Positions 5,022 to 33,398 of a stretch of DNA of 64,000 nt are shown one piece after another. Made by a program: the position numbers and the translations under genes. The notes beneath the pieces were generated by a model, which did no database searches, was not told the origin of the DNA, and saw nothing but the letters and a program-made list of their open reading frames with translations. How positions within the stretch are numbered: the first letter of the stretch is position 1; the number at the start of each line of letters is the position of its first letter. Source of the stretch: a virus; the IMG/VR virus record IMGVR_UViG_3300032050_000011; one strand, written 5' to 3'.

Positions 5022-5035
5022 AACAGAATCGATAT
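5022..5035 (+). promoter_or_regulatory. class A promoter motif (AACAGAATCGATAT)
   Basis: Upstream of ATG 5054. Confidence 0.7.
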
Positions 5036-15832: not shown

Positions 15833-16133
15833 AGTAACGATTTCAAACGAAGATTGTGCAAATGTTATAAAGTATGCCACACACTTTAACGTGCCGTTAT
15901 CAGCTGAGTTGCAAGTTGCATTAGATAAATTTACAGCTGACAATTCGTTTGAAAATCAACTAGAGATTAAGCTTGAAATGTGCAAATGGATGCTGTCTAG
16001 CGCTCATGAGTCTTTTCAAGATAGTCTATGGGATGCACCAAAAAAAGCAGCAGAGTCCGTTGTCTTCAATCTTCAATTTGATAAAGATGTGAAAGACGTG
16101 CTTACTAAGGGCGACGATTCTGCCCAGGAATAG
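15801..16133 (+). CDS. hypothetical protein
   Basis: Strong RBS. Confidence 0.75.
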   Translation: MPDQTDEVKNKVTISNEDCANVIKYATHFNVPLSAELQVALDKFTADNSFENQLEIKLEMCKWMLSSAHESFQDSLWDAPKKAAESVVFNLQFDKDVKDVLTKGDDSAQE

Positions 16134-16584
16134 GTGGTGGTTGGTTATCGGATGGTAAAGATGGTGGCAGATCGTTGGCCTCTGGCATAGGCGGTGGCAG
16201 ATCGCCACTCTCTGGTAGAGCCGGAGGTGTTTCTTTTGCAGCAGATGCTTGCTTTTGTTTAGCGGCGCTAGCTCTTGAAGCCAACTCAACCGCTGGATCT
16301 ACGACTCCTTCCTTGCCGAAGGATCTGTTTCCAGTGCAATGATCTTGCATTATGCCATCAATTCTTGATCTGGCGTATGTTCTAAATCCGGATGCACCGT
16401 GTTTTTGACTATCAAAATCACGTATTGCAAGCATTAGTCCATGCAATCCAGCATCATAGAGATCATTTGGATGAGTAATTCTATCCGGATACTTTTTGGA
16501 TTTGCGCGATGCAAGCTCATGTATATCTGGTAGATATTCTTTAAATAGGTCTTCTATTAGTTTTTGATGATGCTCATTTTTCAT
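16105..16584 (-). CDS. truncated sigma70-family factor (region 2 only, FliA/WhiG-like) with Pro-rich tail
   Basis: LFKEYLP..., DLYDAGLHGLMLAIRDFD, FRTYARSRIDGIMQD; no region 4 HTH; leaderless after GGTATAAT. Confidence 0.75.
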   Translation of the reverse strand: MKNEHHQKLIEDLFKEYLPDIHELASRKSKKYPDRITHPNDLYDAGLHGLMLAIRDFDSQKHGASGFRTYARSRIDGIMQDHCTGNRSFGKEGVVDPAVELASRASAAKQKQASAAKETPPALPESGDLPPPMPEANDLPPSLPSDNQPPPIPGQNRRP

Positions 16585-16615
16585 GTCACTATTATACCAT
16601 TAGCAGGAGGTATAA

Positions 16616-16897
16616 ATGAATTATATGTTTTACGAGTCTACTAGAATAGTAGAGAAACAAGAAAAACACGAAAAATCAAGAGCTTACGATCTTATTGAAT
16701 CTTTAGAAAAAAGCGGATTAGACAATCATCATCTGTTTTGTGCGCTGGAGTTGATGAGCAAAAGAGCACAGTCTGAATTTGAGTCAGCCGTCATTTTAAA
16801 AGCCAAACAGATACTCATAGCTCACAAGGAGAAAAATGAAACAGATGACATTAGTATTATTAGTCGCTTTAGTAGCTGCGTGCGCTCCCAAAGCTAG
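16616..16897 (+). CDS. hypothetical protein
   Basis: GGAGG RBS. Confidence 0.55.
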   Translation: MNYMFYESTRIVEKQEKHEKSRAYDLIESLEKSGLDNHHLFCALELMSKRAQSEFESAVILKAKQILIAHKEKNETDDISIISRFSSCVRSQS

Positions 16898-17654
16898 CAA
16901 TGAAATTAGCCAAGCAAACAGCTATAGGGTTGTAAAGCCAACAAGCGGCAAGCATCACGCTATCTTCCAAATTAGAAGTCCAAATGGTGGTGGCTGTACT
17001 GCTTTTGTTATCTCTAATAGAAGAGCTATTACGGCTGGTCATTGTGTGGAAATTTCAAAGCAACTTTTAGAAAACAAAAAAGAAATTCAAACGACAACTG
17101 CTGGTTTTGTAAAAGCTATAGCTATAGAAATAGAGAGAACTGATTGTACAAATGTCCATCCCAAGTTTCTTTGTGAAAAGAGACTAAGAGAAATGAGAGC
17201 TATGCTTAAAAATTCTAACTCTCTTCTTACAAGGCTGATTAATAATCAACCAGATAAATTTAAAGTACTAGATTCTGAAGGCAAAGAGCTTAAAGTTGAG
17301 CCAATTGCACTAACTAGTGAATTTTCTTTTAGAGACTTTGCGGTTCTTCAGGGTGATTTTTCTGAGTTTGAGAAGCTTCCTTTAGCTGAAAGTGTTGATC
17401 TGTTGCCAGGTGAACTTCTGCGAACTTGCGGGTTTGCGAATCTTAAAATTCCTGCAGCCTGTACAAACTTTATTGCCTTAGGCAACGAAGGATTCGCTTA
17501 CAAGGGCAACGGTTACTTAGTAAAAGGCATGAGTGGTGGACCTGTTATCAATAGCAAAGGTGAAGTAGTAGGAATCAACGTCGCCGTAGGCGCAGACGCA
17601 GTATTTATGACTCCGGTAGTGGGAGTTCTAGATCGTTTTGCTAAGGAGGACTAG
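16836..17654 (+). CDS. trypsin-like (S1) serine protease, lipoprotein
   Basis: Lipobox LVAAC; TAGHC, DFAVL, GMSGGP. Confidence 0.85.
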   Translation: MKQMTLVLLVALVAACAPKASNEISQANSYRVVKPTSGKHHAIFQIRSPNGGGCTAFVISNRRAITAGHCVEISKQLLENKKEIQTTTAGFVKAIAIEIERTDCTNVHPKFLCEKRLREMRAMLKNSNSLLTRLINNQPDKFKVLDSEGKELKVEPIALTSEFSFRDFAVLQGDFSEFEKLPLAESVDLLPGELLRTCGFANLKIPAACTNFIALGNEGFAYKGNGYLVKGMSGGPVINSKGEVVGINVAVGADAVFMTPVVGVLDRFAKED

Positions 17655-18904
17655 TGAAAGAGCTCGATATTTTGCAGGCTATATCTGATGAGAGCAGTAA
17701 GAATGGTAAATTTGCTTTACTTAAAAAATATTCTAGCGATCAGCGTCTAGCTCAACTACTAGACGCTGCGCTTAACTACAAAAGAATCTTCTACATAAAT
17801 AAAATGGATCTAGGTCAGTCATTGATTAATGAAGGCGTAGCTTTCCCAGACCTACATGATGAATTCATGCAGTTACTTTCTAGACTAGAAAAGCGCGAAA
17901 TAACTGGCAATGAAGCTAGAATAGAGGTTGTATTCTTTCTAATCAAGTGCTCCAAGCAGCAGCAAGACTGGTATCTTAAAATTTTAAGAAAAGATCTTAA
18001 GGCGGGTTTCAGCGCTGAAACAGCAGCAGAAGCTGGGTTTGACATACCGCTATTTGACGTAATGTTGGCCAAAGACGGAAAATCTTGCAAGAACCTGAAA
18101 GATATAATTTCTAAAGGCGTCTATGCTAGTCCTAAGTTTGATGGCTACAGATGCCTAGCTGTAATAAATGAAGGCGAAGTAACTCTCTACTCTAGGGCTG
18201 GAACAGAGTTTCACAACTTTCCATCCATAGTAGAGTCATTAAAGCGCAGCTTTCCTAGTGGTCAACATGTGTTTGATGGTGAGATTATGTCTGATGACTT
18301 TCAGTCTATGCAGAAGTCAGCGTTTGCCAGCAAGCGAGGGACTGTGGTCGGTGACGTCAAGTACTATGTATTTGGATATGTTCCCTATCAAGAATGGGAC
18401 AGCAAGCAGTTCAAGCTAAAAACAAAAGAAAGGCTAGATATATTAGGTAATCTTCAAAAATCATTTGAGCCTAACGTTGTAATGGTGTCACAAAAATTCA
18501 TAAACTCACTAGACGAAGCTCTTAAATTTGAGCGAGACTGCTTGAGCTACGGCTATGAAGGCGCAATGCTACTGCCAGATATTCCATATTATCTTGGCAA
18601 AAAATCTAATAAACTACTTAAATTAAAGACTATGCAGTCACAGGATTGCACTGTTAGAGGTTTTTATGAAGGCGAAGCAGGCACTAGAAATCAAGGCACA
18701 CTTGGTGGTCTAGAATTAATCCAAGAGAATGGCATTGCCTGCAGATGCGGCACTGGCTTCTCTGACGAAGATAGACTATATATCTGGAGCAACGGTCAAG
18801 AATTTATAGGGCGAATAGCAGAGATAAAATACCAGGAGCTAACTGAGGACGGAGTCATGCGTTTTCCTGTTTTTATGAGATGGCGTGATGATAAGGCTAA
18901 GTAA
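17654..18904 (+). CDS. lig: ATP-dependent DNA ligase
   Basis: PKFDGYR, FDGE, GYEG, KLK, CGTGFSD, RFPVF. Confidence 0.95.
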   Translation: MKELDILQAISDESSKNGKFALLKKYSSDQRLAQLLDAALNYKRIFYINKMDLGQSLINEGVAFPDLHDEFMQLLSRLEKREITGNEARIEVVFFLIKCSKQQQDWYLKILRKDLKAGFSAETAAEAGFDIPLFDVMLAKDGKSCKNLKDIISKGVYASPKFDGYRCLAVINEGEVTLYSRAGTEFHNFPSIVESLKRSFPSGQHVFDGEIMSDDFQSMQKSAFASKRGTVVGDVKYYVFGYVPYQEWDSKQFKLKTKERLDILGNLQKSFEPNVVMVSQKFINSLDEALKFERDCLSYGYEGAMLLPDIPYYLGKKSNKLLKLKTMQSQDCTVRGFYEGEAGTRNQGTLGGLELIQENGIACRCGTGFSDEDRLYIWSNGQEFIGRIAEIKYQELTEDGVMRFPVFMRWRDDKAK

Positions 18905-18905
18905 T

Positions 18906-19097
18906 ATGAATCAAGAGGTAGACGCTGTAGATGTATGCCTGAACTTAATTTTGGTTCTTCAACGACTAAATCTAGGCGTACGTCACGTTAGAAGAACACC
19001 TATGGCATTTGAGTTAGCCATACTATTAGACGAAGGTAAAACAGCTCTAGACGCATACAGAAAAGAGCACAGCATAGGTTCAAGTTGGTGGGGATAA
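18906..19097 (+). CDS. hypothetical microprotein
   Basis: ORF 18885..19097, likely ATG 18906. Confidence 0.5.
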   Translation: MNQEVDAVDVCLNLILVLQRLNLGVRHVRRTPMAFELAILLDEGKTALDAYRKEHSIGSSWWG

Positions 19098-19256
19098 GCA
19101 CTTTTATTATGACGTTTAATTTAAAATCCGCTGACAGGATGCAGATGTATCTTGAAAGTGCCATAATAATGGATTATCTTGAGTTTTTAGCTAATATAAA
19201 CATCATATATATCGATCGTGCATTGCTAGAAGATATTGGAGAAGGGAGTCGATTGC

Positions 19257-19550
19257 ATGTCTACATTGAATAACAAGATAGAGTGCTTAAAAAGACTTAT
19301 AAAGCTAGATCATCATCATGAGCTTATGTACTGGATGGTTGAGTCTAGGCTAGCTGCTGCCGATATAATGAGCTCGAAGAACAAATCAGATCAGCATATA
19401 GCAGAAGTAATTTATCTAAACTTACAGCAAGCTAAAATCGATGAAAAGATAATTCTACTAGACTATGAATGGACCATACTGCCTAGAGAACATATCAAGA
19501 TAATGGTTGTCACCGAGAAAGAGTCACAGACATTCATTTACGAAGCTTAA
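19257..19550 (+). CDS. hypothetical protein
   Basis: ORF 19236..19550; GGGAG before ATG 19257. Confidence 0.55.
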   Translation: MSTLNNKIECLKRLIKLDHHHELMYWMVESRLAAADIMSSKNKSDQHIAEVIYLNLQQAKIDEKIILLDYEWTILPREHIKIMVVTEKESQTFIYEA

Positions 19551-19609
19551 AATAAAATTTGTATAATATCATTATTGCATGATGCAATAATAACGTTTTA
19601 GGAGGAAGC

Positions 19610-19804
19610 ATGGTTTCTGTTTCACGAAAAAAGAAAAAAGTACCAAAATCATTTGAGCAAGCAACTAGAATTCTGCTTGAATGGCAATTTGAACAAAATC
19701 TAAAAGAAAAAATAGATGGCTTTTATCAAAAAAAACTTAAAGAATTAGATCAAGAAATTGCTCAACTTGAAATTGAAAATAACAATAAAAACTTAAACAA
19801 ATAA
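19610..19804 (+). CDS. small basic coiled-coil protein
   Basis: AGGAGG RBS; GTATAAT at 19561. Confidence 0.65.
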   Translation: MVSVSRKKKKVPKSFEQATRILLEWQFEQNLKEKIDGFYQKKLKELDQEIAQLEIENNNKNLNK

Positions 19805-19811
19805 AAACAAT

Positions 19812-19825
19812 AACAAATTCGATAT
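19812..19825 (+). promoter_or_regulatory. class A promoter motif (AACAAATTCGATAT)
   Basis: Upstream of the thioredoxin gene. Confidence 0.6.
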
Positions 19826-19839
19826 AAAAAAGAGGTTTT

Positions 19840-20169
19840 ATGAAAGCATTATTAATTTTAACTACTTTATGTTTTTCGCTTGCTGCAAGTGCAGAAGTAA
19901 GAATAATTAAATTTTCAGCCGAGTGGTGCAAGCCGTGCAAAGACTACAAGCCGGTTATCGATAAAGTAGTAAAAGAACTAAAGCTTGACATGCAAGAGGT
20001 CGACATCGATAAGAATCCTAACCTAGCGAATAAATTTGCAGTTGAAGGCGTGCCAACGACAGTGTTCCTTGAAGGCGATAAAGAGGTTGCTAGAATTTTA
20101 GGTTCTGTTGACGAAAAATTTTTAAAACAATTTACTGAGAATGTAATAAAATCAACAAAGGGGAAATAG
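19840..20169 (+). CDS. thioredoxin with signal peptide
   Basis: MKALLILTTLCFSLAASA|E signal; FSAEWCKPC; GVPT. Confidence 0.85.
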   Translation: MKALLILTTLCFSLAASAEVRIIKFSAEWCKPCKDYKPVIDKVVKELKLDMQEVDIDKNPNLANKFAVEGVPTTVFLEGDKEVARILGSVDEKFLKQFTENVIKSTKGK

Positions 20170-20170
20170 C

Positions 20171-20590
20171 ATGTTGTCACTTATCTATGGCGGTATTACA
20201 CATCATTATTTAGCAAAAGACCTTCCCTACTGTAATCCTATTAAAGGCGGTATGGGAACGATCCATAATGAGTATGTTATAGCCATGGCTGGCTCTAAAG
20301 ATTTCAGACTTGGTCTAATATCGGGTAAAGACTCTGCATGCGGAAATATAATGGGTCCAATATCTGCAACTAAAATAAGTGACAATATTGATTTTATGCT
20401 AGGCGGTTACAATACTAATTTCAAAAAATTTCGTGACAGAATGATAGAACCACCTTCAATCGGCGGGATAACGCCTGTTGTTGGGCTTGATTTTAAAATA
20501 CCACTATTCGAGTACGAAGATACTAAATTGTCACTAGATACTTTAGTATCTTTCGGAGTGATAACGCACGCAATAAATCTTAGTTTTTGA
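20171..20590 (+). CDS. hypothetical protein, possibly PagP-like beta-barrel
   Basis: GGITHHY N-terminus, alternating beta pattern, C-terminal Phe; no clear signal peptide. Confidence 0.35.
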   Translation: MLSLIYGGITHHYLAKDLPYCNPIKGGMGTIHNEYVIAMAGSKDFRLGLISGKDSACGNIMGPISATKISDNIDFMLGGYNTNFKKFRDRMIEPPSIGGITPVVGLDFKIPLFEYEDTKLSLDTLVSFGVITHAINLSF

Positions 20591-20597
20591 GGTTAAT

Positions 20598-20756
20598 ATG
20601 TATACATTAATACTAATAGTTGTGTCTCTGGGACAATACCCTGCAGTAACATCTATTGACTTTGACAATAGTGCAACGTGTCTTAAGGCTTTATCTACCT
20701 CTCTGGAGTTAGAGGGTCAGGGCTTAAAAATTAAAGCAAGGTGTGTACCAAAATGA
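20598..20756 (+). CDS. small putative secreted protein with Cys pair
   Basis: GAGG RBS; MYTLILIVVSLG...C...ARCVPK. Confidence 0.5.
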   Translation: MYTLILIVVSLGQYPAVTSIDFDNSATCLKALSTSLELEGQGLKIKARCVPK

Positions 20757-21183
20757 TTAGATTATTTTTAGCAAGCGCAGGCTTAGGCCTAAGTTGTAAA
20801 TTGTTCTACATATCAGAAGATTTTGTAACGCAAACCATATGTCTGCTATTTATTCCGCTTTTCGTACTAGGCGTTAACTCTGCGATAAAGCAAATAGCGG
20901 TAGATGATAATGATGAGTAACATGGAATGCCCTTTCTGTTCAGTTCCGTGCCGCACCAAATGGTGTCCGTATAATGAGCAAGAGGATACGGAGGGCAAAG
21001 TGAAGAGATCAGACATGAGAAAGATCATATATGAAACACTTGAGTCGGGCTGGTCGCACCCGGAGGCTAATGCAAAACTTGCAGAAGACATTTTAGTAGC
21101 CATAGAGCGAGCAGGCATGCTACCGCCAATAGCTTTTTTACCTAAACTTAAAATATCAGATAATGCATGGGAGTCGGAGCAAG

Positions 21184-21468
21184 ATGGCTAAGGTTATAGT
21201 CCACAAACCAACTCATGTATTTGATTACGAAACAGTAAACAGTATGACGGTTTGTTTGTGGAACCTGCAGTTGCGACTATTTGAACTAGATGAAGAGACT
21301 CTTATAAATTACTTTAACACTGTATTTGTGTCTGATATCTACGAGAACAACAGATATACCAATAAGATACTAAAGATATGCACACTTGAATGGCCAATGT
21401 CTGAGCAAGACAGACTGTGTTTGGCTACCCATATTGCGGTTCAACTGCTGGGACTAGGAGAGTTATGA
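21184..21468 (+). CDS. hypothetical protein
   Basis: GGAG before ATG 21184. Confidence 0.55.
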   Translation: MAKVIVHKPTHVFDYETVNSMTVCLWNLQLRLFELDEETLINYFNTVFVSDIYENNRYTNKILKICTLEWPMSEQDRLCLATHIAVQLLGLGEL

Positions 21469-21824
21469 ATTACACTAGGTACTTACTATTGATGATACTT
21501 GGACTGACGCTGTGTTTTCCTCCCGCTATTCTTATGCTAGTGATTTTAAGTGCAATACTTAATTATTTCTTTTTTAGCAATAGTATATTGTTTGGTGGAC
21601 TCTTGGTAATCTATTCTCTTTATAAGATGGCTAAAATCTATTCTGCCAGAAAGGAATGGGATGATTAGGATGTGGTTGCTAGTTATTCAAATGAGTCACG
21701 GATATGTGGAGCAAGGCTTCTTCATTGAAAGAGATAACTGTATAAAAATGGGTAAAGAGATTGTTGGCAAGTCTAAGTATATGACCTATGAATGCAAGAG
21801 GCGAAAAGTCAAAATTAAATAATA

Positions 21825-22394
21825 TTAGTCGTCTTCGCCCTCTATCTCGTCTATTAGACCTAGATCAAGAGCTTTTTCTGAAGAAATATAAGTATCAAAG
21901 TCCATCATTTTTTGGAGTTGCGCTAGCTTAAAACCTGAATCTTTTTCATTTATCTTAGATAAATAAATAGCCATGCAGATCTTATCCATCTCATCATTTT
22001 CTTGTACTGCACGCTTAACATCATTAAAATGACCATTGACATCCATCTGACCTCTATGTATCATCAATCTTGAATGCTTACTCATGACTCTAACATCTGC
22101 CGCTTGCAATATGATGCTACCCATACTCATCGCTACGCCTATTACCTTAACGGTAACAGCATTTCCGCAGTCTTTTATAGCATCATAGGCCGCAAAACCA
22201 AGATTGACATCTCCGCCGCTTGAGTCAAGCACTACTAATATTTCGCCATCTGTTTTATCTAGATACTTTATCAACTTAACAAACTTATGTATGTTCTCAC
22301 TGTCGACTTCGCCCTGCAAGTAGATTATTCTGCCGCGTATATCTATACCATGCTCTATGAGAATATCAAAATCAGTCTGTCGCCTGTCGTTCAT
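21825..22394 (-). CDS. clpP: ClpP-like serine protease (ClpP2)
   Basis: RIIYLQGEV, DSSGG, AMSMG (Ser), LMIHR (His), FDTYISS (Asp), LGLIDEI; start 22394 after AAGGGA. Confidence 0.9.
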   Translation of the reverse strand: MNDRRQTDFDILIEHGIDIRGRIIYLQGEVDSENIHKFVKLIKYLDKTDGEILVVLDSSGGDVNLGFAAYDAIKDCGNAVTVKVIGVAMSMGSIILQAADVRVMSKHSRLMIHRGQMDVNGHFNDVKRAVQENDEMDKICMAIYLSKINEKDSGFKLAQLQKMMDFDTYISSEKALDLGLIDEIEGEDD

Positions 22395-22436
22395 ATATGT
22401 CCCTTGACACTGCCACGGCAGCATACTATATCTAGC

Positions 22437-22470
22437 ATTATACCTGGTCTTGCTTTGGCAGATTCGATAT
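22437..22470. promoter_or_regulatory. back-to-back promoters: class B GGTATAAT (- strand, 22437-22444, clpP2) and class A GCAGATTCGATAT (+ strand, 22458-22470)
   Basis: Motifs read directly. Confidence 0.6.
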
Positions 22471-22487
22471 AAAATCAAGAGGTTAAG

Positions 22488-22781
22488 ATGAGTAAAACAA
22501 ATGAAGAACTTGTAAGAGAATTTTTAGAAAAAGGTGGAAAAATAGAAGTGCTACCACCTGCTGACAATAATCAGGTAAATCCTATATCTAGTATTACAAG
22601 TCAGCCAGTTAAACTTCTCTCGCTAGAAGAGGCAGAGTCCCTATACGGCGAAAAAACAGAAAGAAAAAGTAAGGCTAAAAAGCCTGACCTAAAAAACATA
22701 AACATGAATCTAATACCCGATCATTTGAAGAAATACATATTGTCGAAGTTCGACAATGATATTACAAAGGAGAACGAATGA
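22488..22781 (+). CDS. SutA-like RNA polymerase-binding protein (putative)
   Basis: VREFLEKGGKIEVLP motif. Confidence 0.5.
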   Translation: MSKTNEELVREFLEKGGKIEVLPPADNNQVNPISSITSQPVKLLSLEEAESLYGEKTERKSKAKKPDLKNINMNLIPDHLKKYILSKFDNDITKENE

Positions 22782-23935
22782 AGCCAATTAGAATCTTAGA
22801 GGTGCTAAAGCTTGCAATGGCAGCACGCAAGAATGACGATGTATTTAATCCGCTATTTACAGGCGATGCTGGTCTGGGTAAATCTCAGATCTGTCAAAAG
22901 TTTGTAGATGTAATGAGGGTCACGGGTTTTCCAGAGGCAGGTATCGATGCAGATCCTGATTTCGGTTTTCTTGACCTACGCATTGCCTACTACGAAGCTC
23001 CCGACCTTATCGGGTTTCCTGAAACTGTCTCAGATGACAGAGGCACCAAGCGCACGACTCATTGTCTACCTGATTTCTGGCCAACAAGAGGCCAAGGTCT
23101 TATTCTTCTCGAGGAACCTAACCGCGGCACAACCGGTGTCATGAACTGTCTCATGCAGCTTCTAACCGACCGTAAAATAAATAAATACGAGCTGCCACAA
23201 GGCTGGATCGTAGCGTCCTGTATCAACCCAGACACGGCAGAATATGATGTGAATGCCATGGATGCCGCTCTTCGTAACCGCTTCGAGGAATACGAGGTCG
23301 AATACGATGCAATCTCCTTCATTGATTACATCGAATCAGCAGGCTGGCATGACACAGTGCAGATGTTCATTAAATCAGGTGTCTGGGTCTACAAGGACAC
23401 AAAGTCCATCGGCGACAACGGCAAGTATATCTCGCCTCGTACCTGGTCCAAAGTCAATGCTGCGGAGAAAGCAGGTGTAGGTGCAGATCGTCGTCTCCAC
23501 CGCGAGACCATGACATCCATTCTAGGCCGTGACATCGGTAATGAGTATCACAAGTTCTGTTATGACGAAGCTCCGGTTACTGCTAAAGATCTTATTGCAG
23601 ACAAAAAGAAAGCTCTCAAGCGTCTTGAAAAGCAATCTGATCCTAACTCTTATAAAGGCGATATGATTGCTGTTACAGTGGAATCAATCGCTCAGTATTA
23701 TTCTTGTACGATCGACGATGACAAAGATAAAGGTCTTGTTGGCGAGAATACAATGGCAGAGGTTGCCAAGATCATTCCTTCCGATCAGGCCATCAATCTT
23801 ATCAAGCAGTGCGGTTTCAAGCAGAGCAAAGGTTCTATCACCACTTTCTTCCGTGATTTTGTTGCTCGCCACCCTGACTTGACAAAAGTATTGAAAGGTA
23901 ATATTAGATTAGATAGAAGCGTAGGAAAAGATTAA
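22778..23935 (+). CDS. MoxR-like AAA+ ATPase
   Basis: GDAGLGKS, LLEEPNR, MDAALRNRF, SPRTW. Confidence 0.85.
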   Translation: MKPIRILEVLKLAMAARKNDDVFNPLFTGDAGLGKSQICQKFVDVMRVTGFPEAGIDADPDFGFLDLRIAYYEAPDLIGFPETVSDDRGTKRTTHCLPDFWPTRGQGLILLEEPNRGTTGVMNCLMQLLTDRKINKYELPQGWIVASCINPDTAEYDVNAMDAALRNRFEEYEVEYDAISFIDYIESAGWHDTVQMFIKSGVWVYKDTKSIGDNGKYISPRTWSKVNAAEKAGVGADRRLHRETMTSILGRDIGNEYHKFCYDEAPVTAKDLIADKKKALKRLEKQSDPNSYKGDMIAVTVESIAQYYSCTIDDDKDKGLVGENTMAEVAKIIPSDQAINLIKQCGFKQSKGSITTFFRDFVARHPDLTKVLKGNIRLDRSVGKD

Positions 23936-23973
23936 CCAATACGCTTTTAAGCCTGTAGAATTATAGGCAATTC

Positions 23974-24012
23974 GGCCGCATGGTTTATCCCTTTGTCCAT
24001 GCGGCCTTTTTT
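23974..24012 (+). terminator. rho-independent terminator
   Basis: GGCCGCATGG-13 nt-CCATGCGGCC followed by T6. Confidence 0.85.
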
Positions 24013-24024
24013 AAATGAGGTTTT

Positions 24025-24363
24025 ATGAATAATGAGATGCTCACTAAAGTAATAAATCTAGTTAATTCAACTAATGAAATGATAAAACTTAGAAACGAAG
24101 AAATACAACTTTATCATAAACTTACTAGGGCTATCATTGGTCAAAAACTATTAAAAGACCAAAAATCTAAAGAAGTTAAATCTATCGAACTACCCGTAAA
24201 GACACAAAATATTCTGAAAGAGCACGGCGTAAGATTTGGTTGGCCACATGGAACAAGCATTAAATTATATGACTCTGGTGCAGTAGAAGTATTAGCAAGT
24301 ATAAAAAATACAACTACTTATATATTCGTAATTGAAGATAATACTATATTAATTCCAGCTTAG
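24025..24363 (+). CDS. hypothetical protein
   Basis: GAGG RBS. Confidence 0.65.
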   Translation: MNNEMLTKVINLVNSTNEMIKLRNEEIQLYHKLTRAIIGQKLLKDQKSKEVKSIELPVKTQNILKEHGVRFGWPHGTSIKLYDSGAVEVLASIKNTTTYIFVIEDNTILIPA

Positions 24364-24375
24364 GTAAGTACCATA

Positions 24376-25134
24376 ATGGCAAGAAAAAAGAAAGTTCTAA
24401 GAGAATACAACGTCTGCAAGTGCTTAGTAACTAACATACAGTCAGTTACAGGGCATAAAACACACGAGATACTATCATATATGCATTCTCTAGCAGAGAA
24501 CTGCATAAAAGAGAATGGATTAAGAGTAGATAAATATGAAGAAGTGTCCTACTACGAGCCGACTATAATTGACTACTCCTATTATCCTAACACTAAGATA
24601 TATCTAGCCGTATCTATTAGTAGAATTTCTAATCTAATAGAAGAAGACAATTCCGACGACTTAGTACAGTGCATGTATGTAGACTACAAGTTCTACACGC
24701 CTTCTTCTATTAAAAAACTAACACAAGAACAGTTTGACGATATAGTTATCGATGCAATGCTGACTGACTTTTCTATGGACTTTGATCCGCCTGCTATAAA
24801 GAAAAGAAAGACGCTTGTTCAACTAAAGAAAGAAGAAAAAGAGCGTGAGGCTAAAGAAAAAGTAAGACAAATTAATTATCTAAAAAAAGAACTAAAAAGT
24901 CTTCTTAGGCAAACTCTAGAATATAAAGCAAATGCTGTAGATGACAGTTCCACTAAATCTACAAGAAACTACTATGTTAGACAATTTAAAAAAAGTGAAA
25001 GAGAAATAAACTATGTAATTAATCAGCTAAAAAACCTAGGCGATAAAACACATGAGGTGCTTTTGACCCCAACAGATTCGATAAATAATCAAACGGAGGG
25101 CAAATGTCAAACCAAAGTCAAACTCAAGCTCTAG
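24376..25134 (+). CDS. hypothetical protein
   Basis: 252-aa ORF. Confidence 0.7.
   Translation: MARKKKVLREYNVCKCLVTNIQSVTGHKTHEILSYMHSLAENCIKENGLRVDKYEEVSYYEPTIIDYSYYPNTKIYLAVSISRISNLIEEDNSDDLVQCMYVDYKFYTPSSIKKLTQEQFDDIVIDAMLTDFSMDFDPPAIKKRKTLVQLKKEEKEREAKEKVRQINYLKKELKSLLRQTLEYKANAVDDSSTKSTRNYYVRQFKKSEREINYVINQLKNLGDKTHEVLLTPTDSINNQTEGKCQTKVKLKL
25071..25084 (+). promoter_or_regulatory. class A promoter motif (AACAGATTCGATAA)
   Basis: Upstream of GGAGG-ATG 25104. Confidence 0.7.
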
Positions 25135-26585
25135 ATCTCACAGAAGAAGAGAAACAACATCTTGAAGAACTAAAGCGCAAAGCCAAAGAAGCTGGCATGC
25201 GATCTCGTGAAGAAGCCCTAGAAGCTGCGAAGCGCGAAATGGTGGGTGCAGACGAACAAAAGCAATGTTTGCAAACCGCAATATTTCAGACGACTAAAAC
25301 AAATCCATTCATGGGCTCTGTACTTCAGTGTATGAACATGACCTATAGCCACGTGATTCCAACTGCTGGTGTTATGTTTAATGCTGAGTTGAAGCGCTGG
25401 GATATGCTGTTAAATCCATATTTTTTCTGTCGTAAACTAAATGAAGTACAACGTAAAGCAGTTTTATTGCATGAGCTCTATCATATTACTCACAAGCATC
25501 CGCTACGTGTTCCATTCATGAAACTATCAAGCCATAAGCGTCAGCTCATGAACATCGCTATGGACATGGCAATTAACCAATTCATTAAAGATCTTCCAGC
25601 CGGATGCCCTCAGTGTCCGCCGCGTAAGCCAGGCCAATTCGCGTCCTTGCCATGCGAAAATCCAGACTGCTGTGGCTCAGGTATCGACATCAAAGATTTC
25701 TTCGACACAGACAAAAATGGCAAAATAGTTCAATGGGAAGCACGTCAGCCAGCTGAGCACTATTACGAAAAGCTAATGGAAAGATTTCAGGATCCAGATC
25801 CGGAAGATCAAGACAATAAGGATGGCAACGCAGGTGGTGGTGCAAGCAGCGGCGATCTTCCAAAAACAACTGATGTTCACCACTGGGATGGCTCAAGTGA
25901 AGAAAAAGATATGCTTGAAGCAACTGAAGATCTAGTTAAGCGTGCAATGATTAAATGCAAGTTTGGCCACGATGAGCTGCCAGGTCATATCAGAGAACTA
26001 CTTGACCATATTAAGCAGCGCAGAGCAGAGCTAGACTACAAACGTCTGATTCTTCAGGCGATGAAGTCCTCGCTTCCTGCCAACTTTCGCGTCAAATCAT
26101 GGACTCGTAAGAGCAAACGCTATGGCGCAAAAGCACCAGGCAATAAGAATGGAGAAGAACCTAAGCTAGATAATTTTATCGACACATCAGGATCTATCTC
26201 CATCGAAGAAGCAAATAACTTCCTAGATATCGTAGATGAGTTCTTGCGTGTTGGCGCTAGGAAGTGTACACTCAATATGTTTCATACTTCTAACTATTAT
26301 CGCGAAGACTACAAGCGAGGTCAGCGTATCAAGCGTGAAGATATTCAGTCAGGCGGAACATGCCTAGAAGATTCATTCCGCGTGATTGCAAAATCTAGAC
26401 CTGACCTAGCGATTATCTTAACCGATGGCTACTACAGCCATGTTGATACAAAGAAGCTGGTAGGCCCAAATGGCAGGTTTCCAAATACTGTGTTTATCAT
26501 CAGCAAGGATGGTACTACGGATCATCCGTTTAAAAATGAACCGTGGGCAAAGACAGTACAGATTCCAGGCAGTGTGAAGCGATGA
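25104..26585 (+). CDS. metallopeptidase-like (HExxH) + VWA domain protein (DUF2201-type), MoxR partner
   Basis: LHELYH, NIAMDMAIN, IDTSGSI MIDAS, GGT, LTDG. Confidence 0.85.
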   Translation: MSNQSQTQALDLTEEEKQHLEELKRKAKEAGMRSREEALEAAKREMVGADEQKQCLQTAIFQTTKTNPFMGSVLQCMNMTYSHVIPTAGVMFNAELKRWDMLLNPYFFCRKLNEVQRKAVLLHELYHITHKHPLRVPFMKLSSHKRQLMNIAMDMAINQFIKDLPAGCPQCPPRKPGQFASLPCENPDCCGSGIDIKDFFDTDKNGKIVQWEARQPAEHYYEKLMERFQDPDPEDQDNKDGNAGGGASSGDLPKTTDVHHWDGSSEEKDMLEATEDLVKRAMIKCKFGHDELPGHIRELLDHIKQRRAELDYKRLILQAMKSSLPANFRVKSWTRKSKRYGAKAPGNKNGEEPKLDNFIDTSGSISIEEANNFLDIVDEFLRVGARKCTLNMFHTSNYYREDYKRGQRIKREDIQSGGTCLEDSFRVIAKSRPDLAIILTDGYYSHVDTKKLVGPNGRFPNTVFIISKDGTTDHPFKNEPWAKTVQIPGSVKR

Positions 26586-26795
26586 GTAACTTTGGCTTAA
26601 ACTTAAGAAGCCACAAATGGCGCTGGACCTATGACGAGCAAGGTACAGACGCCTACAATGTATTGGGTGCACTAGAGTGCACTCTTTATAATTTAAGCAT
26701 AATGGCGCCATTAAATAATTATTGGAATATGGATGAAATGGAGCGTTTTGGTTTTGAGTTTAGCTTCTTAACCAAGCGAAACATAAAGGACAACT

Positions 26796-27014
26796 GTGGA
26801 CAATAGTAGGATCGCCTTAAAAGGCCTCAGAAAGAACGATCAAGGAGACATAGTCGAGTATGATCTTAGCATAAAATTAAATGAAATAACTGTAATCTCT
26901 ATGGTTAGAGATGAGGCCTATGTATCTATATTTAATGGTCGTTGTTATAGGGTTAGTCATAGTTTTGATGAATTAAAAAGACTAATAGAAAACACAGAAA
27001 CAAGCCAACTGTAG
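26796..27014 (+). CDS. hypothetical protein
   Basis: AAGGA RBS, GTG start. Confidence 0.55.
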   Translation: MDNSRIALKGLRKNDQGDIVEYDLSIKLNEITVISMVRDEAYVSIFNGRCYRVSHSFDELKRLIENTETSQL

Positions 27015-27060
27015 CAGTGTCAGAGGCTATTTATAGTAAATTATATGGTATAATATAGGT

Positions 27061-27576
27061 ATGGAAAACACTAAGCTGCTTGATTCTTTACAAGAAATTT
27101 ATGATGACCTAATCTGGCTCGAAGAGCAGGTTGCCTCTGATCTAAATAAGGGGCCCAACTATTGGAAAGACAAGGACCCGGCTAAGTATAAGAAAATGCT
27201 AACAAAATTGCGAAGAGATCGCAAAACACCTGGCCATAAAGAGCGCGGCTATCAGCAGGTTCTTCAGGCTAAGCGGCGTGAAAAAGGTAAGCCTGGCACG
27301 CGTAGCGGCCAAAATGGCAAGAAGGGTCACTCTTCAGGGCATATGAAGACTAAGACAGGTGCTGCAGCGAAGCGCTATGCTTCTGCCGAGAAAAAGCATG
27401 GTAAGAAGATGTCAATGAACCGCAAGAACAACAATAAAGGATACGCCTCGGGCAACGTAAAGCTTATATCTCAGAAATACAATAAGGGCGACGAAAAGTA
27501 TTCTAGAAAAGCACCTGAAAATAATCTTAAAAGTAAATTAAAAAAACTAAAAAAAGCATTACTTGATTATCTTTAA
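27061..27576 (+). CDS. very basic protein with degenerate HNH-like motif; putative internal head protein
   Basis: SMNRKNNNKGYASGNV; acidic leader ending LNKG; leaderless after GGTATAAT (27047-27054). Confidence 0.5.
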   Translation: MENTKLLDSLQEIYDDLIWLEEQVASDLNKGPNYWKDKDPAKYKKMLTKLRRDRKTPGHKERGYQQVLQAKRREKGKPGTRSGQNGKKGHSSGHMKTKTGAAAKRYASAEKKHGKKMSMNRKNNNKGYASGNVKLISQKYNKGDEKYSRKAPENNLKSKLKKLKKALLDYL

Positions 27577-27582
27577 TTAAAT

Positions 27583-28143
27583 ATGGAAAAACTACACATA
27601 TCTGAAAATGGTCAGTGGCAGCTAAATAAAGTTTTACTAAATTCAATAAGTCCTGCGGACGCAGAAGTTAAGAATCCAGAAGCAGACAGAAGAAATATAT
27701 CGGTGGTAAACAAGCAGCTGCCAAACGGTCTGATCTATAAGCAGTTTAAAGTACGCGGAAGCAACAGCAACGCTAGAATTCATACGTTATATGAGAAAAA
27801 TAACCCCGAACCTGTAAGCATAATGAATACATCAGATTCTCAAGATGTCGGCAACGACAAAATCTATAAGAATACAGTTAACTGGGCGTCAACTATACCA
27901 GAGCATCAAAAAAAAGGTCTTGGTAGACAGCTATATTTGGCCGCACTAATGCATTTGGGCACAATACACTCTGATGATAACATATCTCCGCATATACATA
28001 AACTCTGGGGCAGTCTATCAAAGATACCTGGGCTTTCGGTGCGACTGAGTGCTGGAGATAGTGAACTGCATAGACACAGAGCAGAACTAGATCCAAGCAA
28101 AAAACTAGATCTTAATTCGCTATTTCATAGTATAAATCTCTAA
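27583..28143 (+). CDS. GNAT-like acetyltransferase with N-terminal leader
   Basis: PEHQKKGLGRQLY acetyl-CoA motif A; leader shared with 6284. Confidence 0.55.
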   Translation: MEKLHISENGQWQLNKVLLNSISPADAEVKNPEADRRNISVVNKQLPNGLIYKQFKVRGSNSNARIHTLYEKNNPEPVSIMNTSDSQDVGNDKIYKNTVNWASTIPEHQKKGLGRQLYLAALMHLGTIHSDDNISPHIHKLWGSLSKIPGLSVRLSAGDSELHRHRAELDPSKKLDLNSLFHSINL

Positions 28144-28169
28144 TAGCGTAAAATTAAAGCCACAACCAT

Positions 28170-28511
28170 ATGACAGCTAATTATAAAAGAAAAAGACTTA
28201 TTGAAAAAAATAGCTCGGATAGGGAGACGACTGCGATTCGTAAGCAGCTCAATTCCTCAGAGAGAATTAAGACAAAAAATGAGATTAAAAAAAATATAAG
28301 CGATAGAATACAAATAGCTCAAGAACTAAGATGGGAGTTCGAGGTGAAGCAGTCATCAGAATGCCATCATAATGAAATATTTGGCCCACACGTGCATATG
28401 CAAACAATGCTAGCACTGCTGGATGTAGGTGATTTCGATCTATATCGCTGCACATGCCTAGACACTTACAAACTATCCGATGAACAGATATTGAAAATGT
28501 TTGGCCTATAA
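28170..28511 (+). CDS. hypothetical protein (His/Cys C-terminus)
   Basis: 113-aa ORF. Confidence 0.55.
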   Translation: MTANYKRKRLIEKNSSDRETTAIRKQLNSSERIKTKNEIKKNISDRIQIAQELRWEFEVKQSSECHHNEIFGPHVHMQTMLALLDVGDFDLYRCTCLDTYKLSDEQILKMFGL

Positions 28512-28566
28512 TTACTCTGTAATTTCATAAACGTATAATATCTTTAAGATTATAAAAAGAGGTAGT

Positions 28567-29583
28567 ATGCGACTTGGCTTTGCCTGCAAATATATGCATG
28601 ATATTGAGCTTCCAGCAAAAGAGCTAGAGGCTATCGAGTCACGACTTAACTGTCGTACGACCACGTTTACGTGGGCAAATAAACAGAAGCGCTCTGTCGC
28701 AGAGGAGCGATTGCACTCAATACTAGATCATAACCTAGCTGCACTCGGCGGAATTATAGACTATGTGGGAACACTGGATCCTGAATTGCGTATGTTTCGC
28801 ATCAGCAGTGATATATGCCCGCTATACACACATCCAAATTGGATCAGCTTCTGGAAAAGCTGCGAACTACAATCGAAGCTTGAAAAAGAATTAACGCATA
28901 TAGGTGGCAAGACGCGGGATCTAGGCATCAAGGTTTCCTTTCACCCAGCTCAGTTTACTGTGCTAGCGAGTGACAAGGACGATGTGGTAGACAGGTCACT
29001 AGAAGAGTTTGAATATCATGCGGATATGGCTCGATGGCTTGGCTACGGCAAATCTTTTCAAGATGGCTGCAAGATAAATATACATATTGGTGGTAAAGGC
29101 GGTACCTCTACGCTTATAAAAAACCTAGGTCGACTATCTGATGTGGCTAGAAATCTAATCACAATAGAAAATGACGAGTTTAGTTATAGCCTAGATGAGA
29201 CAATTAAACTTAAACAACATGTCGCATTAGTTTTAGATGTACACCATCACTGGATAAACACAGGCAAATATATCGAACCTGACTCAGACAGCGTTAAGCA
29301 GGTTATAGAAAGTTGGCGAGGTATAAGACCTAGTATGCACTATAGTATATCTAAACAATCAGTTTTTGCCGATCATTCGTCAGATGAAAAACCTGATCTT
29401 GCACTACTATTAAGTGCTGGCTACAAAAAAACAGCTTTAAGAGCTCATTCAGACGACTACTGGAATCTGGCATGCAATGACTGGATCTCGGGCTTCAGAA
29501 AAGACTTTGACATAATGTGTGAAAGCAAGAGTAAGAATTTAGCCTCTATAAAATTGTTAGATTATTTGCGAGGTAAACAATGA
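28567..29583 (+). CDS. uvsE: UV damage endonuclease
   Basis: RLGFACK, FRISS, SFHPAQF, INIH, TIENDE, LDVHHH, RAHSD, IMCESKSK. Confidence 0.93.
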   Translation: MRLGFACKYMHDIELPAKELEAIESRLNCRTTTFTWANKQKRSVAEERLHSILDHNLAALGGIIDYVGTLDPELRMFRISSDICPLYTHPNWISFWKSCELQSKLEKELTHIGGKTRDLGIKVSFHPAQFTVLASDKDDVVDRSLEEFEYHADMARWLGYGKSFQDGCKINIHIGGKGGTSTLIKNLGRLSDVARNLITIENDEFSYSLDETIKLKQHVALVLDVHHHWINTGKYIEPDSDSVKQVIESWRGIRPSMHYSISKQSVFADHSSDEKPDLALLLSAGYKKTALRAHSDDYWNLACNDWISGFRKDFDIMCESKSKNLASIKLLDYLRGKQ

Positions 29584-29774
29584 ACGCAATTATTCTAGGT
29601 TGGCTTTTCATAGGATCAGTCGTAAATCTTTTCATACATTACAGAAACGCTGATAAATTTGGCACTGCACTTATGGGTGGACAGCTCAACATACTTGTAT
29701 TTCTACTTATGGGCTTCACTAATCATATACTTTGGCCACTCGCTCTCTACACCGAACTCACTAGAAAACTCTGA
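29580..29774 (+). CDS. small membrane protein
   Basis: Two hydrophobic segments, LWP motif. Confidence 0.6.
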   Translation: MNAIILGWLFIGSVVNLFIHYRNADKFGTALMGGQLNILVFLLMGFTNHILWPLALYTELTRKL

Positions 29775-29786
29775 CAGATTCGATAT
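29773..29786 (+). promoter_or_regulatory. class A promoter motif with leaderless ATG 6 nt downstream
   Basis: GACAGATTCGATAT-taatac-ATG(29793). Confidence 0.7.
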
Positions 29787-30171
29787 TAATACATGAGAGT
29801 TAGTGATAAAATTCAGATAGTTGAAAATTTTTTGGCATGCTTGGACAAACTTGTTGAATTTACTCAAGTAGAATCAGATACTGGCATTGAGACTAGTGAT
29901 CTAGTTCTAGTTCTAAGAATTGGAATTTATATAGATTAAATGCTAGAACAGATTAACCCCGCTGTTCTATCATCGGGCACAACTAATAGGATTTGGTTGT
30001 GCCCTCTTTATAAGAGGAATATGCTGCCAGAAGGATCGAAGTCCATAATAAAACTAATATCTTTTCTAGATAATCTAGATTTATTGATTTTTTATAGCGG
30101 AAATTCAGAAACACTCATGTGGGAGTTTGCTACTCCCGGAACAAAAATAGGTCAAAAACTGGAGGTACTAG

Positions 30172-30456
30172 ATGCTAAGCTCTACACAGATGAAATATAT
30201 CGAGCTAGAGAAGAAGAAAGAGGCTTACAAGAAGTTCTTGGAAGAATTAAAGGAGGCTACTCAGGCAGTAGTGAATGAAGTCGGAGTCGGCGGTCATTTT
30301 CAAGATGCTGAAGGTACCGTTTATCAGGTTGAAGAATCTGACGGGAAATTCGTGTACTTTGACAGATTCGAAATTAAACGCACGAGACGTAGTGGCGAAA
30401 AATCTGGCACACTATCTCTAACAAAAGCAAAAGAACTAGGTTATGGAGTAGCATAG
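30172..30456 (+). CDS. hypothetical protein
   Basis: GGAGG RBS. Confidence 0.7.
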   Translation: MLSSTQMKYIELEKKKEAYKKFLEELKEATQAVVNEVGVGGHFQDAEGTVYQVEESDGKFVYFDRFEIKRTRRSGEKSGTLSLTKAKELGYGVA

Positions 30457-30488
30457 CTTGTTAAATTTCAAACGTTTTAGGAGTTACC

Positions 30489-31199
30489 ATGTCTATTTTT
30501 AAAGATCGTGTCTATGAAGAGATGGATGACATATCCAGGCTTATTGAGCCATATCAATGTGGTCTGAACGAAGACCTATCGAAGTTTCCAGATAGGCTAG
30601 AAATTGATCCAGATCAGCTAGAGTCTACATGGGGAACAAACGTGCGTGATATAGTTAGAAGATATGCAAAATCTGCGGAGCTCAATGCTCTTTCAGAAAA
30701 CGTCTGGGACCTAGATCCTAATTTCTTTCAGTTTGAGATAGTTAACTCAGAAGGTGAGCAAACAGATTCACTGCGTTACAATTTTGCTACTAAAGAAATA
30801 GACGGCAAAATTTTTCTAGTGAAGAAAATGTTCTGCGTTGAAGACGACGGTGTCATGAACATAATTATTAAAAATGTAGAAAATAAACTTAGCATGTATA
30901 ATCGTCACGCTGATTCAAAAAGAATAAATGAGATTGCTGATCTATTCAATGCAGAAGAAGTAAAGCAGAAAAGATCAGCCAGTAAAAAAATGCGTTGTCT
31001 AAGAAATCATATAGTTGGTCTGATTAAGTCTAAAAAGCTAGACATACGAGATGCAGAGCTTGCCGCTAGATTCAGCAACTGGATAGTGCTCTATGCTAAT
31101 GATGGAAGTTTACCTGCGCTTGCAAATATTACGAAGCTAAAAATTATGACTCATCAGAATAAACCTATATATTCAATTGATGAAAGGAGCACCGTATGA
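30489..31199 (+). CDS. hypothetical protein
   Basis: AGGAG RBS, 236 aa. Confidence 0.75.
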   Translation: MSIFKDRVYEEMDDISRLIEPYQCGLNEDLSKFPDRLEIDPDQLESTWGTNVRDIVRRYAKSAELNALSENVWDLDPNFFQFEIVNSEGEQTDSLRYNFATKEIDGKIFLVKKMFCVEDDGVMNIIIKNVENKLSMYNRHADSKRINEIADLFNAEEVKQKRSASKKMRCLRNHIVGLIKSKKLDIRDAELAARFSNWIVLYANDGSLPALANITKLKIMTHQNKPIYSIDERSTV

Positions 31200-31705
31200 A
31201 GTTTGATGATCGCCTAAAGTCTTTAACAAGTAGTATTGATCCAGGTGCACCTCTTATAAGACTAAAGATGTCTAGTGATTTGAAGACAATAAGAGCAGAG
31301 TCGATGCCGTGGTTTCCTCCTGCCGACGATCCTAGTTTTCTAGGTCGATTAATCACTGAGTGTGTTAGACGTACTCAGACTATTAATGGCTATACGATAG
31401 ATTATGCTGCAACTAAGTCAAATATAACTGAGTCAGTTGTAGATAATTTTTCTCATCTATATACAAGGGTATCTACGAATAAAGAACCAACTAGAACCAA
31501 GACATTTAAGGCAATTAAGCAGCTGCAGCGAAAAGCACGTCGCGAAGAAGATATATTCGAAGACTTTTTTGCTATTGCAGAATACAATGATCAGGTTACT
31601 AGAGAAGACAGTATTACAAGTGTGAGCAATCAAGTTCATCGTAAAAATATACTCTATTTAATAGAGTCACTAGTGAGGAAGCATGGAAGTGAGAACAATA
31701 ACTAA
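31196..31705 (+). CDS. hypothetical protein
   Basis: ATGA coupling. Confidence 0.7.
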   Translation: MKFDDRLKSLTSSIDPGAPLIRLKMSSDLKTIRAESMPWFPPADDPSFLGRLITECVRRTQTINGYTIDYAATKSNITESVVDNFSHLYTRVSTNKEPTRTKTFKAIKQLQRKARREEDIFEDFFAIAEYNDQVTREDSITSVSNQVHRKNILYLIESLVRKHGSENNN

Positions 31706-32048
31706 TGAAATGGTGCTTAAATATGCACCGATGATTGAAAGCTACATGGCTAATTCAGTTAGAAAAAACTGGAACGAGGCCTGTCTAAGTAAAAACAATG
31801 ATTGCGTAAGCTTAGGCAACAGCGGCTGGACTATGGCCGATATCCGCTCATATCTAATGACGGAAGTTTTTATAGCATTACGCAACTATAGCCCAGACCA
31901 CAATACGAAAGAGTCTACTTTTGTATATGGCCATCTTAGTAAGCGAGTTGGTTCACTAATGAAAAAACTAACAAATAAATCAAAAGGCTATGGGTTTTGG
32001 TCTCTTAATTTAGAGACGGTACTTGGTGAAACTGAATATGATGATTAA
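31683..32048 (+). CDS. divergent sigma region-2-like protein
   Basis: MVLKYAPMI...DIRSYLMTEVFIALRNYSPDHNTKESTFVYGHL resembles the sigma region 2 pattern (xYDPxxxxKFSTYAY). Confidence 0.5.
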   Translation: MEVRTITNEMVLKYAPMIESYMANSVRKNWNEACLSKNNDCVSLGNSGWTMADIRSYLMTEVFIALRNYSPDHNTKESTFVYGHLSKRVGSLMKKLTNKSKGYGFWSLNLETVLGETEYDD

Positions 32049-32070
32049 GTATAATTGTCATGGAGGGGAC

Positions 32071-32871: not shown

Positions 32872-33398
32872 TGGACGACGCAGTAACAAAAGCCTATATA
32901 GATTCAGTAATGGGGGCTAGTGGTGCGAACGTAAATCCAATTATTAGCACTACGGGCACAAGTTCAGGTCACTTAACCATCAATCCAGCCTATTCACTGC
33001 ATATAGGGCCTGGGTTGTCATCTAAAGAAGAAGTGGAATTGAAAGAACTTCAACTTGAACATGAAAAGCTGTTAAGACAAAAAAGAATACAGATGTTTAA
33101 GAACATGCCAGCATCATTTAGGCAGTTTATAGTAGATACCATAAATGTAAATGATTTTGTAAGTAGTCTAAAGTCTGCTACAGTAGATGACTCAGAGCTG
33201 GTAGAAAAAATTAGCCAACTTAAGTCTAGAGACTCTAGGTTTCATCTCAGTGGGCATTATGGTGAAGGCATCTACTTGTCTGTTCCATATCAGCTGCTTG
33301 AACTTATATCAGTTGAAGAATTAAGGGATGCTCATGCTACTCAGACTCTAGAAGAGGAACTATCTGCTTCGACAGATTCGATAAATAAACATGAATAA
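32868..33398 (+). CDS. hypothetical protein
   Basis: Operon-coupled ORF. Confidence 0.65.
   Translation: MMDDAVTKAYIDSVMGASGANVNPIISTTGTSSGHLTINPAYSLHIGPGLSSKEEVELKELQLEHEKLLRQKRIQMFKNMPASFRQFIVDTINVNDFVSSLKSATVDDSELVEKISQLKSRDSRFHLSGHYGEGIYLSVPYQLLELISVEELRDAHATQTLEEELSASTDSINKHE
33371..33384 (+). promoter_or_regulatory. class A promoter motif with leaderless ATG 6 nt downstream
   Basis: GACAGATTCGATAA-ataaac-ATG(33391). Confidence 0.7.

Follow-up and report, generated by a model that had tools for sequence, protein, structure and literature searches.

We have analysed a 64,000-nucleotide (nt) stretch of DNA from the IMG/VR virus record IMGVR_UViG_3300032050_000011, hereafter the window, and we focused on two small genes for sigma factor-like proteins and on the two promoter classes that they may read, class A and class B (GTATAAT). 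The window is part of the genome, about 166 kilobases (kb), of an uncultured freshwater tailed phage whose major capsid protein is about 30% identical to that of SPO1-like phages, and both mini sigmas are carried by a clade of uncultured phages of 165-177 kb. For comparison, we used 25 IMG/VR records found via the 121-residue sigma-like protein, 6 of them near-complete and 18 taken in full length, and the flanks outside the window were rebuilt from loci 100% identical to it. The features on which the argument leans are the following.

16105..16584, minus strand: FliA/WhiG-like mini sigma of 159 residues, with region 2, a region-3.0-like helix and a Pro-rich tail; proposed reader of class A
16591..16599, minus strand: TGGTATAAT, the class B promoter for the FliA-like gene, whose ATG lies at +1
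31683..32048, plus strand: divergent sigma2-fold protein of 121 residues, core to the clade and proposed to read GTATAAT as a late sigma of the gp55 type
30363..30374, plus strand: class A promoter at the head of a gene run (30489-32048) whose last gene encodes the 121-residue sigma
15766..15777, plus strand: class A promoter; four D-type genomes have G at -12 of the orthologous site, and five T-type genomes have T
54627..55937, minus strand: the "carrier", 436 residues, in the head-neck operon, with an acidic leader bearing an FxKA site; in relatives, the orthologue carries a fused FliA-like domain
57428..57434, minus strand: class B promoter of the carrier/neck operon, conserved in position across all 16 genomes that have a carrier
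L085:4109-4798, minus strand, some 14.0-14.7 kb ahead of base 1 of the window: gene for an RpoD-like sigma, preceded by GGTATAAT and with its ATG at +1
L089:7924-8274, plus strand, equal to window 65658-66008, minus strand, about 1.7 kb past base 64000 and before the head protease gene: stand-alone zinc-finger/region-4 gene

The protein encoded at 16105..16584 resembled FliA/WhiG sigma factors in both sequence and fold. Pfam Sigma70_r2 matched residues 13-87 (E 4e-5; 23.8 bits, with a cut-off of 24), and WhiG and FliA were the top sequence matches in the PDB (E 7e-4 to 2e-3). The predicted model contained the sigma2 helices at residues 3-84, a further helix at 97-116 resembling region 3.0, and a disordered Pro-rich tail, and its structural matches were sigma2 domains (Z 10.7-7; for the top match, a root-mean-square deviation (rmsd) of 2.3 Å over 80 residues). 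Pfam regions 3 and 4 were not matched, the chain terminating in the disordered tail. Accordingly, this protein is region 2 plus a region-3.0-like helix and not strictly region 2 alone; the preliminary description, made from the letters of the window, had proposed a FliA/WhiG-like region 2 followed only by an Ala/Pro-rich tail, of which the region 2 stands and the "only" does not. In the relatives, the orthologues occupy the same place, as a lone opposite-strand gene between a ClpP-like pair and a trypsin-like protease, and the free orthologues are 112-172 residues long. A word search gave a single relative because of its limited sensitivity, whereas profile searches found the gene in 6 of 6 near-complete relatives; together with the orthologues at the same place, this indicates a real gene. 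ClpS, ClpA, two ClpP-like genes and a trypsin-like protease gene flank it (10381-13027, 15161-15832, 16836-17654 and 21825-22478), and as a speculation these proteases could time sigma turnover.

The 121-residue protein is strongly conserved, with 182 relatives (64-86% identity among the aligned ones) and a gene in all 6 near-complete relatives. Significant matches were absent in Pfam, PHROG and PDB sequence searches, and one relative (L054) matched Sigma70_r2 at E 0.0036. In terms of fold, the model (pLDDT, the predicted local distance difference test, of 85) had sigma-family chains as its 18 top structural matches among 48,161 (Z 8.1-6.1; for the top match, rmsd 2.8 Å over 81 residues); Foldseek gave a probability of 0.99 but an E value of 0.2. 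Atlas feature placement set the protein beside Sigma70_r2 clusters. When aligned by eye, the invariant KESTF of the family matches the KFSTY of sigma70, F80 falls at the place of Y430, and D53 at the core-binding aspartate; the Trp dyad and region 1.2 are lacking. A predicted complex with the beta-prime clamp helices of E. coli, used as a stand-in, scored 0.50 against 0.01 for the best control, with a contact agreement of at least 89% and a partner pLDDT of at least 67. The mark applied to such complexes was reached by 58 of 80 solved and 2 of 110 mismatched pairs, of which only 7 solved pairs and both mismatches lay at or below 0.60, and a score such as the one obtained here can arise from likeness to solved sigma2-clamp complexes. 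Both small proteins were modelled and both matched sigma-family chains, which bears out the view that the window encodes a second, divergent region-2-like protein.

Class A has the consensus aaC[A/C]GAt[t/c]CGAtw, of which the window holds 12 matches compared with 0.96 expected. The sites lie on the plus strand and are dense in a small-gene cluster starting about 11 kb before the window. Among 88 sites, a -35 box was not above control. Class A has TT at -15/-14, and a FliA-type promoter with a TAAAG-type -35 and GCCGATAA was not found.

Class B is marked by its placement, its raw count not being enriched (19 in the window, 13.6 expected): 12 of the 19 sites lie at most 100 nt before a same-strand start, compared with 10.6% for 139 anagrams. 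These sites lead virion genes and some metabolism genes, frequently with ATG at +1; considering that this is the case for TGGTATAAT, the mRNA of the FliA-like gene is probably leaderless. The upstream TATAAT has G at -13 in 58%, and a TG extension was present in only 73 of 315 upstream GTATAAT. A -35 consensus was not found for class B, and canonical -35/-10 sigma70 promoters were no commoner than in shuffled sequence. GTATAAT is identical in all genomes compared. One class B-led gene, 27061-27576 on the plus strand, has weak PHROG matches to "Srd anti-sigma factor" and to an endonuclease, probably through a shared zinc finger.

On the one hand, the assignment of class A to the FliA-like protein is likely from the co-variation of residues and bases. 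FliA reads its -10 through Y76, stacked on A-11, and through contacts of R80 and D87 with -12G/-13C (PMC12784957); the protein at 16105 keeps these residues as Y70, R74 and D81 in a FliA-type region 2.3-2.4, and the class A core CGATAW equals FliA -13..-8. In seven relatives (T-type), K or V stands at the R80 place and T at the D87 place, and -12 of class A is T, with the upstream C-n-G-A block and A-11 retained. In intergenic sites, G:T at -12 was 64:18 in D-type and 18:74 in T-type genomes, with non-overlapping per-genome values, and orthologous promoters showed the same shift from G to T. The region-2.4 helix of the 121-residue protein is near-identical in a genome with G (G012) and in two with T (G017 and G022), which argues that this protein is not the reader of class A. 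On the other hand, its KESTF motif and core are invariant, as is GTATAAT, and the assignment of class B to it, by this invariance and by exclusion, is the weaker of the two. We hold even odds that both assignments, as read from these comparisons, are correct.

The two genes also appear to be wired reciprocally. All 8 free FliA-like genes, in at least 3 gene neighbourhoods, have (G)TATAAT directly upstream. Class A stands upstream of the 121-residue gene in nine G-type genomes (28-82 nt away in three), and in four T-type genomes related class A variants precede the gene run that holds it. Each gene therefore lies behind the promoter type of the other, and the early sigma may have to travel in the particle. 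The proposal that the FliA-like gene sits behind a GTATAAT promoter agrees with all the free copies, the proposal that its product may read the CGATA class gains from the co-variation, a matter of comparison only, and the suggested cross-regulation is indirectly favoured by the wiring.

Indirect support for virion delivery of the FliA-like protein comes from fusions with the carrier. Nine further records have a FliA-like domain inside a protein of 499-641 residues, the rest of which is homologous to 54627-55937 (E 6e-23). In the seven relatives examined in full, the fusion showed two geometries: in the T clade the FliA-like domain is inserted before the last helix of the carrier, and in G012 it is added after it. 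The fused gene invariably lies between a 373-residue gene and the neck gene. The carrier is unfused in G007, which is next to G012 on the tree. Accordingly, two separate fusions fit as well or better than one, with a node support of 64-76 at the tree nodes that bear on this history, and the idea that the free form arose by splitting of an ancestral fusion was abandoned in view of the two geometries and the unfused carrier. The motif [LFM]xK[AS] occurs in 13 of 16 carrier leaders, which are mostly acidic, compared with a background of 15%, and it resembles the LNKA near the start of the capsid protein. From this we infer that the carrier is processed by the head protease.

Two further sigma-derived parts lie outside the window. 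The RpoD-like protein has 229 residues with regions 1.2, 2 and 3 (E 2e-23) and stops before the helix-turn-helix of region 4.2, a truncation that is the same in G005 and G023. Its gene is accessory, being present in 1 of 6 near-complete relatives, and in this genome the protein could read GTATAAT. The region-4-like protein occurs in most relatives (109-142 residues) with four invariant Cys and a helix-turn-helix resembling region 4.2 (Sigma70_r4, E 4e-6 to 5e-3), and in the relative P0162 an intein-like LAGLIDADG insert sits at an invariant Cys, which suggests that the gene is essential. With these parts, the preliminary picture has to be redrawn. Its two-sigma cascade is better supported than from the letters of the window, with four sigma-derived parts in place of two, so that a one-to-one match of two sigmas with two motifs no longer holds. 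Neither small chain carries region 3.2 or 4, as had been stated of region 4; given the stand-alone gene, this may not hold for the working complex. Both -35-less promoter classes are real, and a third repeated DNA element, TGACACTGCTAC, is also present.

We consider that this phage, probably without an RNA polymerase of its own, may steer the host core enzyme with two minimal sigmas in a loop. Multisubunit RNA polymerase was absent from a search of 5 complete relatives in which positive controls were found, and a DxDGD-type motif was not found in large open reading frames. In the proposed scheme, the FliA-like protein would bind the beta-prime clamp helices and open class A promoters without a -35, driving the early small-gene cluster and many metabolism genes, including the 121-residue sigma. 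The latter would read GTATAAT, with G at -13 and no -35, as T4 gp55 reads its box, and would drive the FliA-like gene along with virion genes and part of the DNA-metabolism genes. Since the FliA-like gene is itself class B, such a loop needs a starter. In the fused lineages at least, the most likely starter would be FliA-like protein that is packaged together with the carrier in the head and then injected. The promoter of the fused-gene operon has no TG in 6 of 7 T-clade genomes, and host RpoD is thus an unlikely starter there. In the present genome, the FliA-like protein is free and without a leader and its promoter has TG, so that host-started expression is possible; leaky reading of the TG-extended promoter by host RpoD would be about as likely a starter. 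The zinc-finger/region-4 protein may be a flap-binding co-activator.

A bolder reading, to which we give a probability of roughly one in three, takes in the whole clade: an injected FliA-derived sigma2 of about 100 residues, free or fused to a protease-processed head protein, would make the host core read phage-only early promoters, and these would yield a second, sigma2-only late factor that would remake the first, giving a closed loop independent of every host sigma, with region 4 perhaps from the zinc-finger protein. The full loop with virion delivery, taken by itself, remains a tentative proposal, and core binding, the promoter assignments and packaging are all inferences.

Several observations weigh against the proposed scheme. 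The 121-residue protein shares 8-16% identity with known sigmas, its top Z of 8.1 is within the chance range for small helical bundles, and HHalign of its family to the FliA-like family gave a probability of 7.8% (to the RpoD-like protein, no match); nothing beyond shared invariance and exclusion links it to GTATAAT. TATAAT is also the box of host RpoD, and a TG extension stands at 4 of the 19 window sites, including those of the FliA-like gene and the carrier operon. The D-to-T change happened once on the tree, the T group being one clade, so that pooled P-values overstate the case. G018 is D-type yet mixed in G and T, and G001, despite Ser at the R80 place, still has G; G023, with W and E at the R80 and D87 places, shows a variable -12, and no more than four to six of its sites could be counted. 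In class A, the C[A/C/T]GA block (-19..-16) lies beyond the reach of a bare sigma2. Free FliA-like copies, the present one included, lack the LxKA leader, and the early and late timing is deduced from gene content only.

An alternative is a host-started open cascade with nothing packaged, in which RpoD reads TG-extended class B promoters at entry, the FliA-like protein follows and opens class A, and the 121-residue or RpoD-like protein later boosts class B. We regard this as somewhat unlikely. TGnTATAAT functions without a -35 for primary sigmas (PMC11598898), the FliA-like genes of this phage and of 4 close relatives are preceded by TGGTATAAT with an ATG at +1, and the free copies have no head-cargo leader; however, the TG-bearing free copies form one clade, the T-clade operons mostly lack TG as described above, class B has no -35 consensus, and two separate fusions into a head-operon protein are left unexplained.

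Alternatively, GTATAAT may be read by host RpoD, or by the truncated RpoD-like sigma with the region-4-like protein, the 121-residue protein being an anti-host core binder or the reader of an unseen promoter. The regions kept by the RpoD-like protein fit TGnTATAAT, and the 121-residue protein lacks the Trp dyad and region 1.2. This explanation is nevertheless unlikely, because 5 of 6 near-complete relatives keep GTATAAT without the RpoD-like gene, which itself lies behind GTATAAT, and the class is marked by G at -13 and not by TG; a third oriented promoter motif, moreover, was not found.

A further possibility, compatible with the closed loop, is a two-subunit sigma, in which one mini acts only with the zinc-finger/region-4 protein and the helix-turn-helix reads the -19..-16 block or TGACACTGCTAC. 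The region-4-like gene is clade-wide and an intein target, and SigO-RsoA offers a precedent (PMC8103513). Against this, neither class has an upstream box at fixed spacing, a fused sigma2-sigma4 form was not found (a weak test), and such helix-turn-helix folds are common among transcription factors, so that we doubt this arrangement as well. Finally, it is highly improbable that host FliA reads class A, with the protein at 16105 serving late as a decoy, whether of FlgM, FliA or core (a decoy of host FliA or FlgM had been considered before): the class A core equals the FliA -10, the gene is under a late-type promoter and TTAAG-N16-CCGATA drives most genes in attack-phase Bdellovibrio (PMC3627812), but a TTAAG/TAAAG box at FliA spacing was not found above control in the 88 sites, the DNA-contacting residues are kept and follow the phage's own promoter, with -12 tracking the phage protein and not the invariant FliA consensus, and a decoy of FlgM should have retained domains 3 and 4, the ones that FlgM contacts (PMC12784957).

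Sigma2-only late factors (T4 gp55, PMC7892883) and two-sigma cascades (SPO1, PMC13401047) are already known; the present system is distinct in its FliA origin, in its reciprocal wiring, in a fusion that recurs and in the joint switch of residue and base. T4 gp55 with gp33 and gp45 (PMC7892883) is alike in placing a sigma2-only factor on host core at a -10-only late promoter, as we propose here, with a possible small partner. T4 gp55 (7d7d_F) was among the fold matches (Z 6.3 for the 121-residue protein and 7.2 for that at 16105), with 8% identity in structural alignment; sequence homology to it was not found in PHROG, PDB and cultured-phage searches. T4, however, uses another box, one such factor where two minis occur here, and host sigma70 for its early genes, and its gp33 is structurally unrelated to region 4, whereas the candidate partner here is region-4-like. 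For gp45, PF09116 was found in 0 of 5 genomes, with control genomes likewise below cut-off. SPO1 (PMC13401047) resembles the present phage in the capsid protein and in using two serial phage sigmas on host core, its cascade being sigmaA, gp28, gp34/gp33. It starts from host sigmaA promoters with gp28 early, whereas here the first sigma lies behind a late-type promoter and -35/-10 promoters are not enriched.

FliA/WhiG, the group 3 sigma28 factors (PMC12784957), share with the protein at 16105 the region 2 sequence, the equivalents of Y76, R80 and D87, and the CGATAW core; unlike them, it has no regions 3.1-3.2 and 4 and no R97 equivalent, and FliA promoters have GC at -15/-14 where class A has TT, no -35 and an extra block at -19..-16. 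In SigO-RsoA (PMC8103513), sigma2 and sigma4 are likewise on separate genes; here these genes are far apart, there is no -35 element, and the pairing is a candidate. The phiEco32 pair gp36/gp79 (PMC12276001) is alike in a phage sigma acting on host core for middle and late genes, but gp36 has a sigma4-like domain and contacts the -35. The phages N4, phiKZ and AR9 (PMC4496689, PMC7598289) also bring a reader of early promoters in the particle, as we propose; they inject a whole polymerase, whereas here only a specificity domain of about 100 residues would enter. In the literature searched, mostly freely readable papers, we found no virion-packaged sigma factor, and the cultured phages searched included none with the 121-residue or the region-4-like protein.

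To our knowledge, the phage sigma cascades studied start with a host sigma, and phages that do without one carry a complete RNA polymerase. If true, packaging of a sigma domain would be a third and much cheaper route, with a start independent of the host's current sigma. The clade provides natural, minimal sigma2/promoter pairs with a one-base specificity switch, which would allow a direct test of how little sigma suffices and are possible parts for orthogonal engineering. All the proteins are of small size, and work on them would require purified core enzyme but no culture of phage or host.

Further promoter sites of the window are as follows.

319..330, plus strand: class A motif
1273..1284, plus strand: class A motif
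5024..5035, plus strand: class A motif with a TGACACTGCTAC element just upstream
9829..9840, plus strand: class A motif, back to back with class B 9798-9804 (minus strand), at ribonucleotide reductase
19814..19825, plus strand: class A motif with one mismatch
22459..22470, plus strand: class A motif, back to back with class B 22437-22443 (minus strand)
25073..25084, plus strand: class A motif
29775..29786, plus strand: class A motif
33373..33384, plus strand: class A motif
32049..32055, plus strand: class B site right after the stop of the 121-residue sigma and before the thymidylate-synthase-like gene
47527..47533, minus strand: class B promoter in the virion-gene region
59933..59939, minus strand: class B promoter in the virion-gene region

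In the two back-to-back pairs (9798-9840 and 22437-22470), class B on the minus strand and class A on the plus strand are 15-25 nt apart, and they could exclude each other. The element TGACACTGCTAC lies at about 4990-5001 (plus strand) and at 3838, 19296 and 28108 (minus strand), with five more copies 8-11 kb before base 1. It was present in 15 of 19 genomes (1-9 copies each), often 11-30 nt upstream of class A, and had no Rfam match. Its variable distance to class A, 11 to 51 nt, rules it out as a -35 box; perhaps it is an operator or a recombination core. Rfam and tRNA scans of the window gave zero matches. A match to a Flavobacteriaceae metagenome-assembled genome probably reflects a phage contig binned into it, and it was not taken as evidence of the host. 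The window genes also include ClpA/ClpS, ribonucleotide reductase and ligase, and both a ThyX (Thy1) gene (13409-14113) and the thymidylate-synthase-like (ThyA-like) gene (32023-32871) are present, the latter of which may serve DNA base modification. Adjoining the neck gene, 52360-53781 on the minus strand encodes a protein of 473 residues with DUF5661 and five near-identical, Gln-rich repeats of 23 residues.

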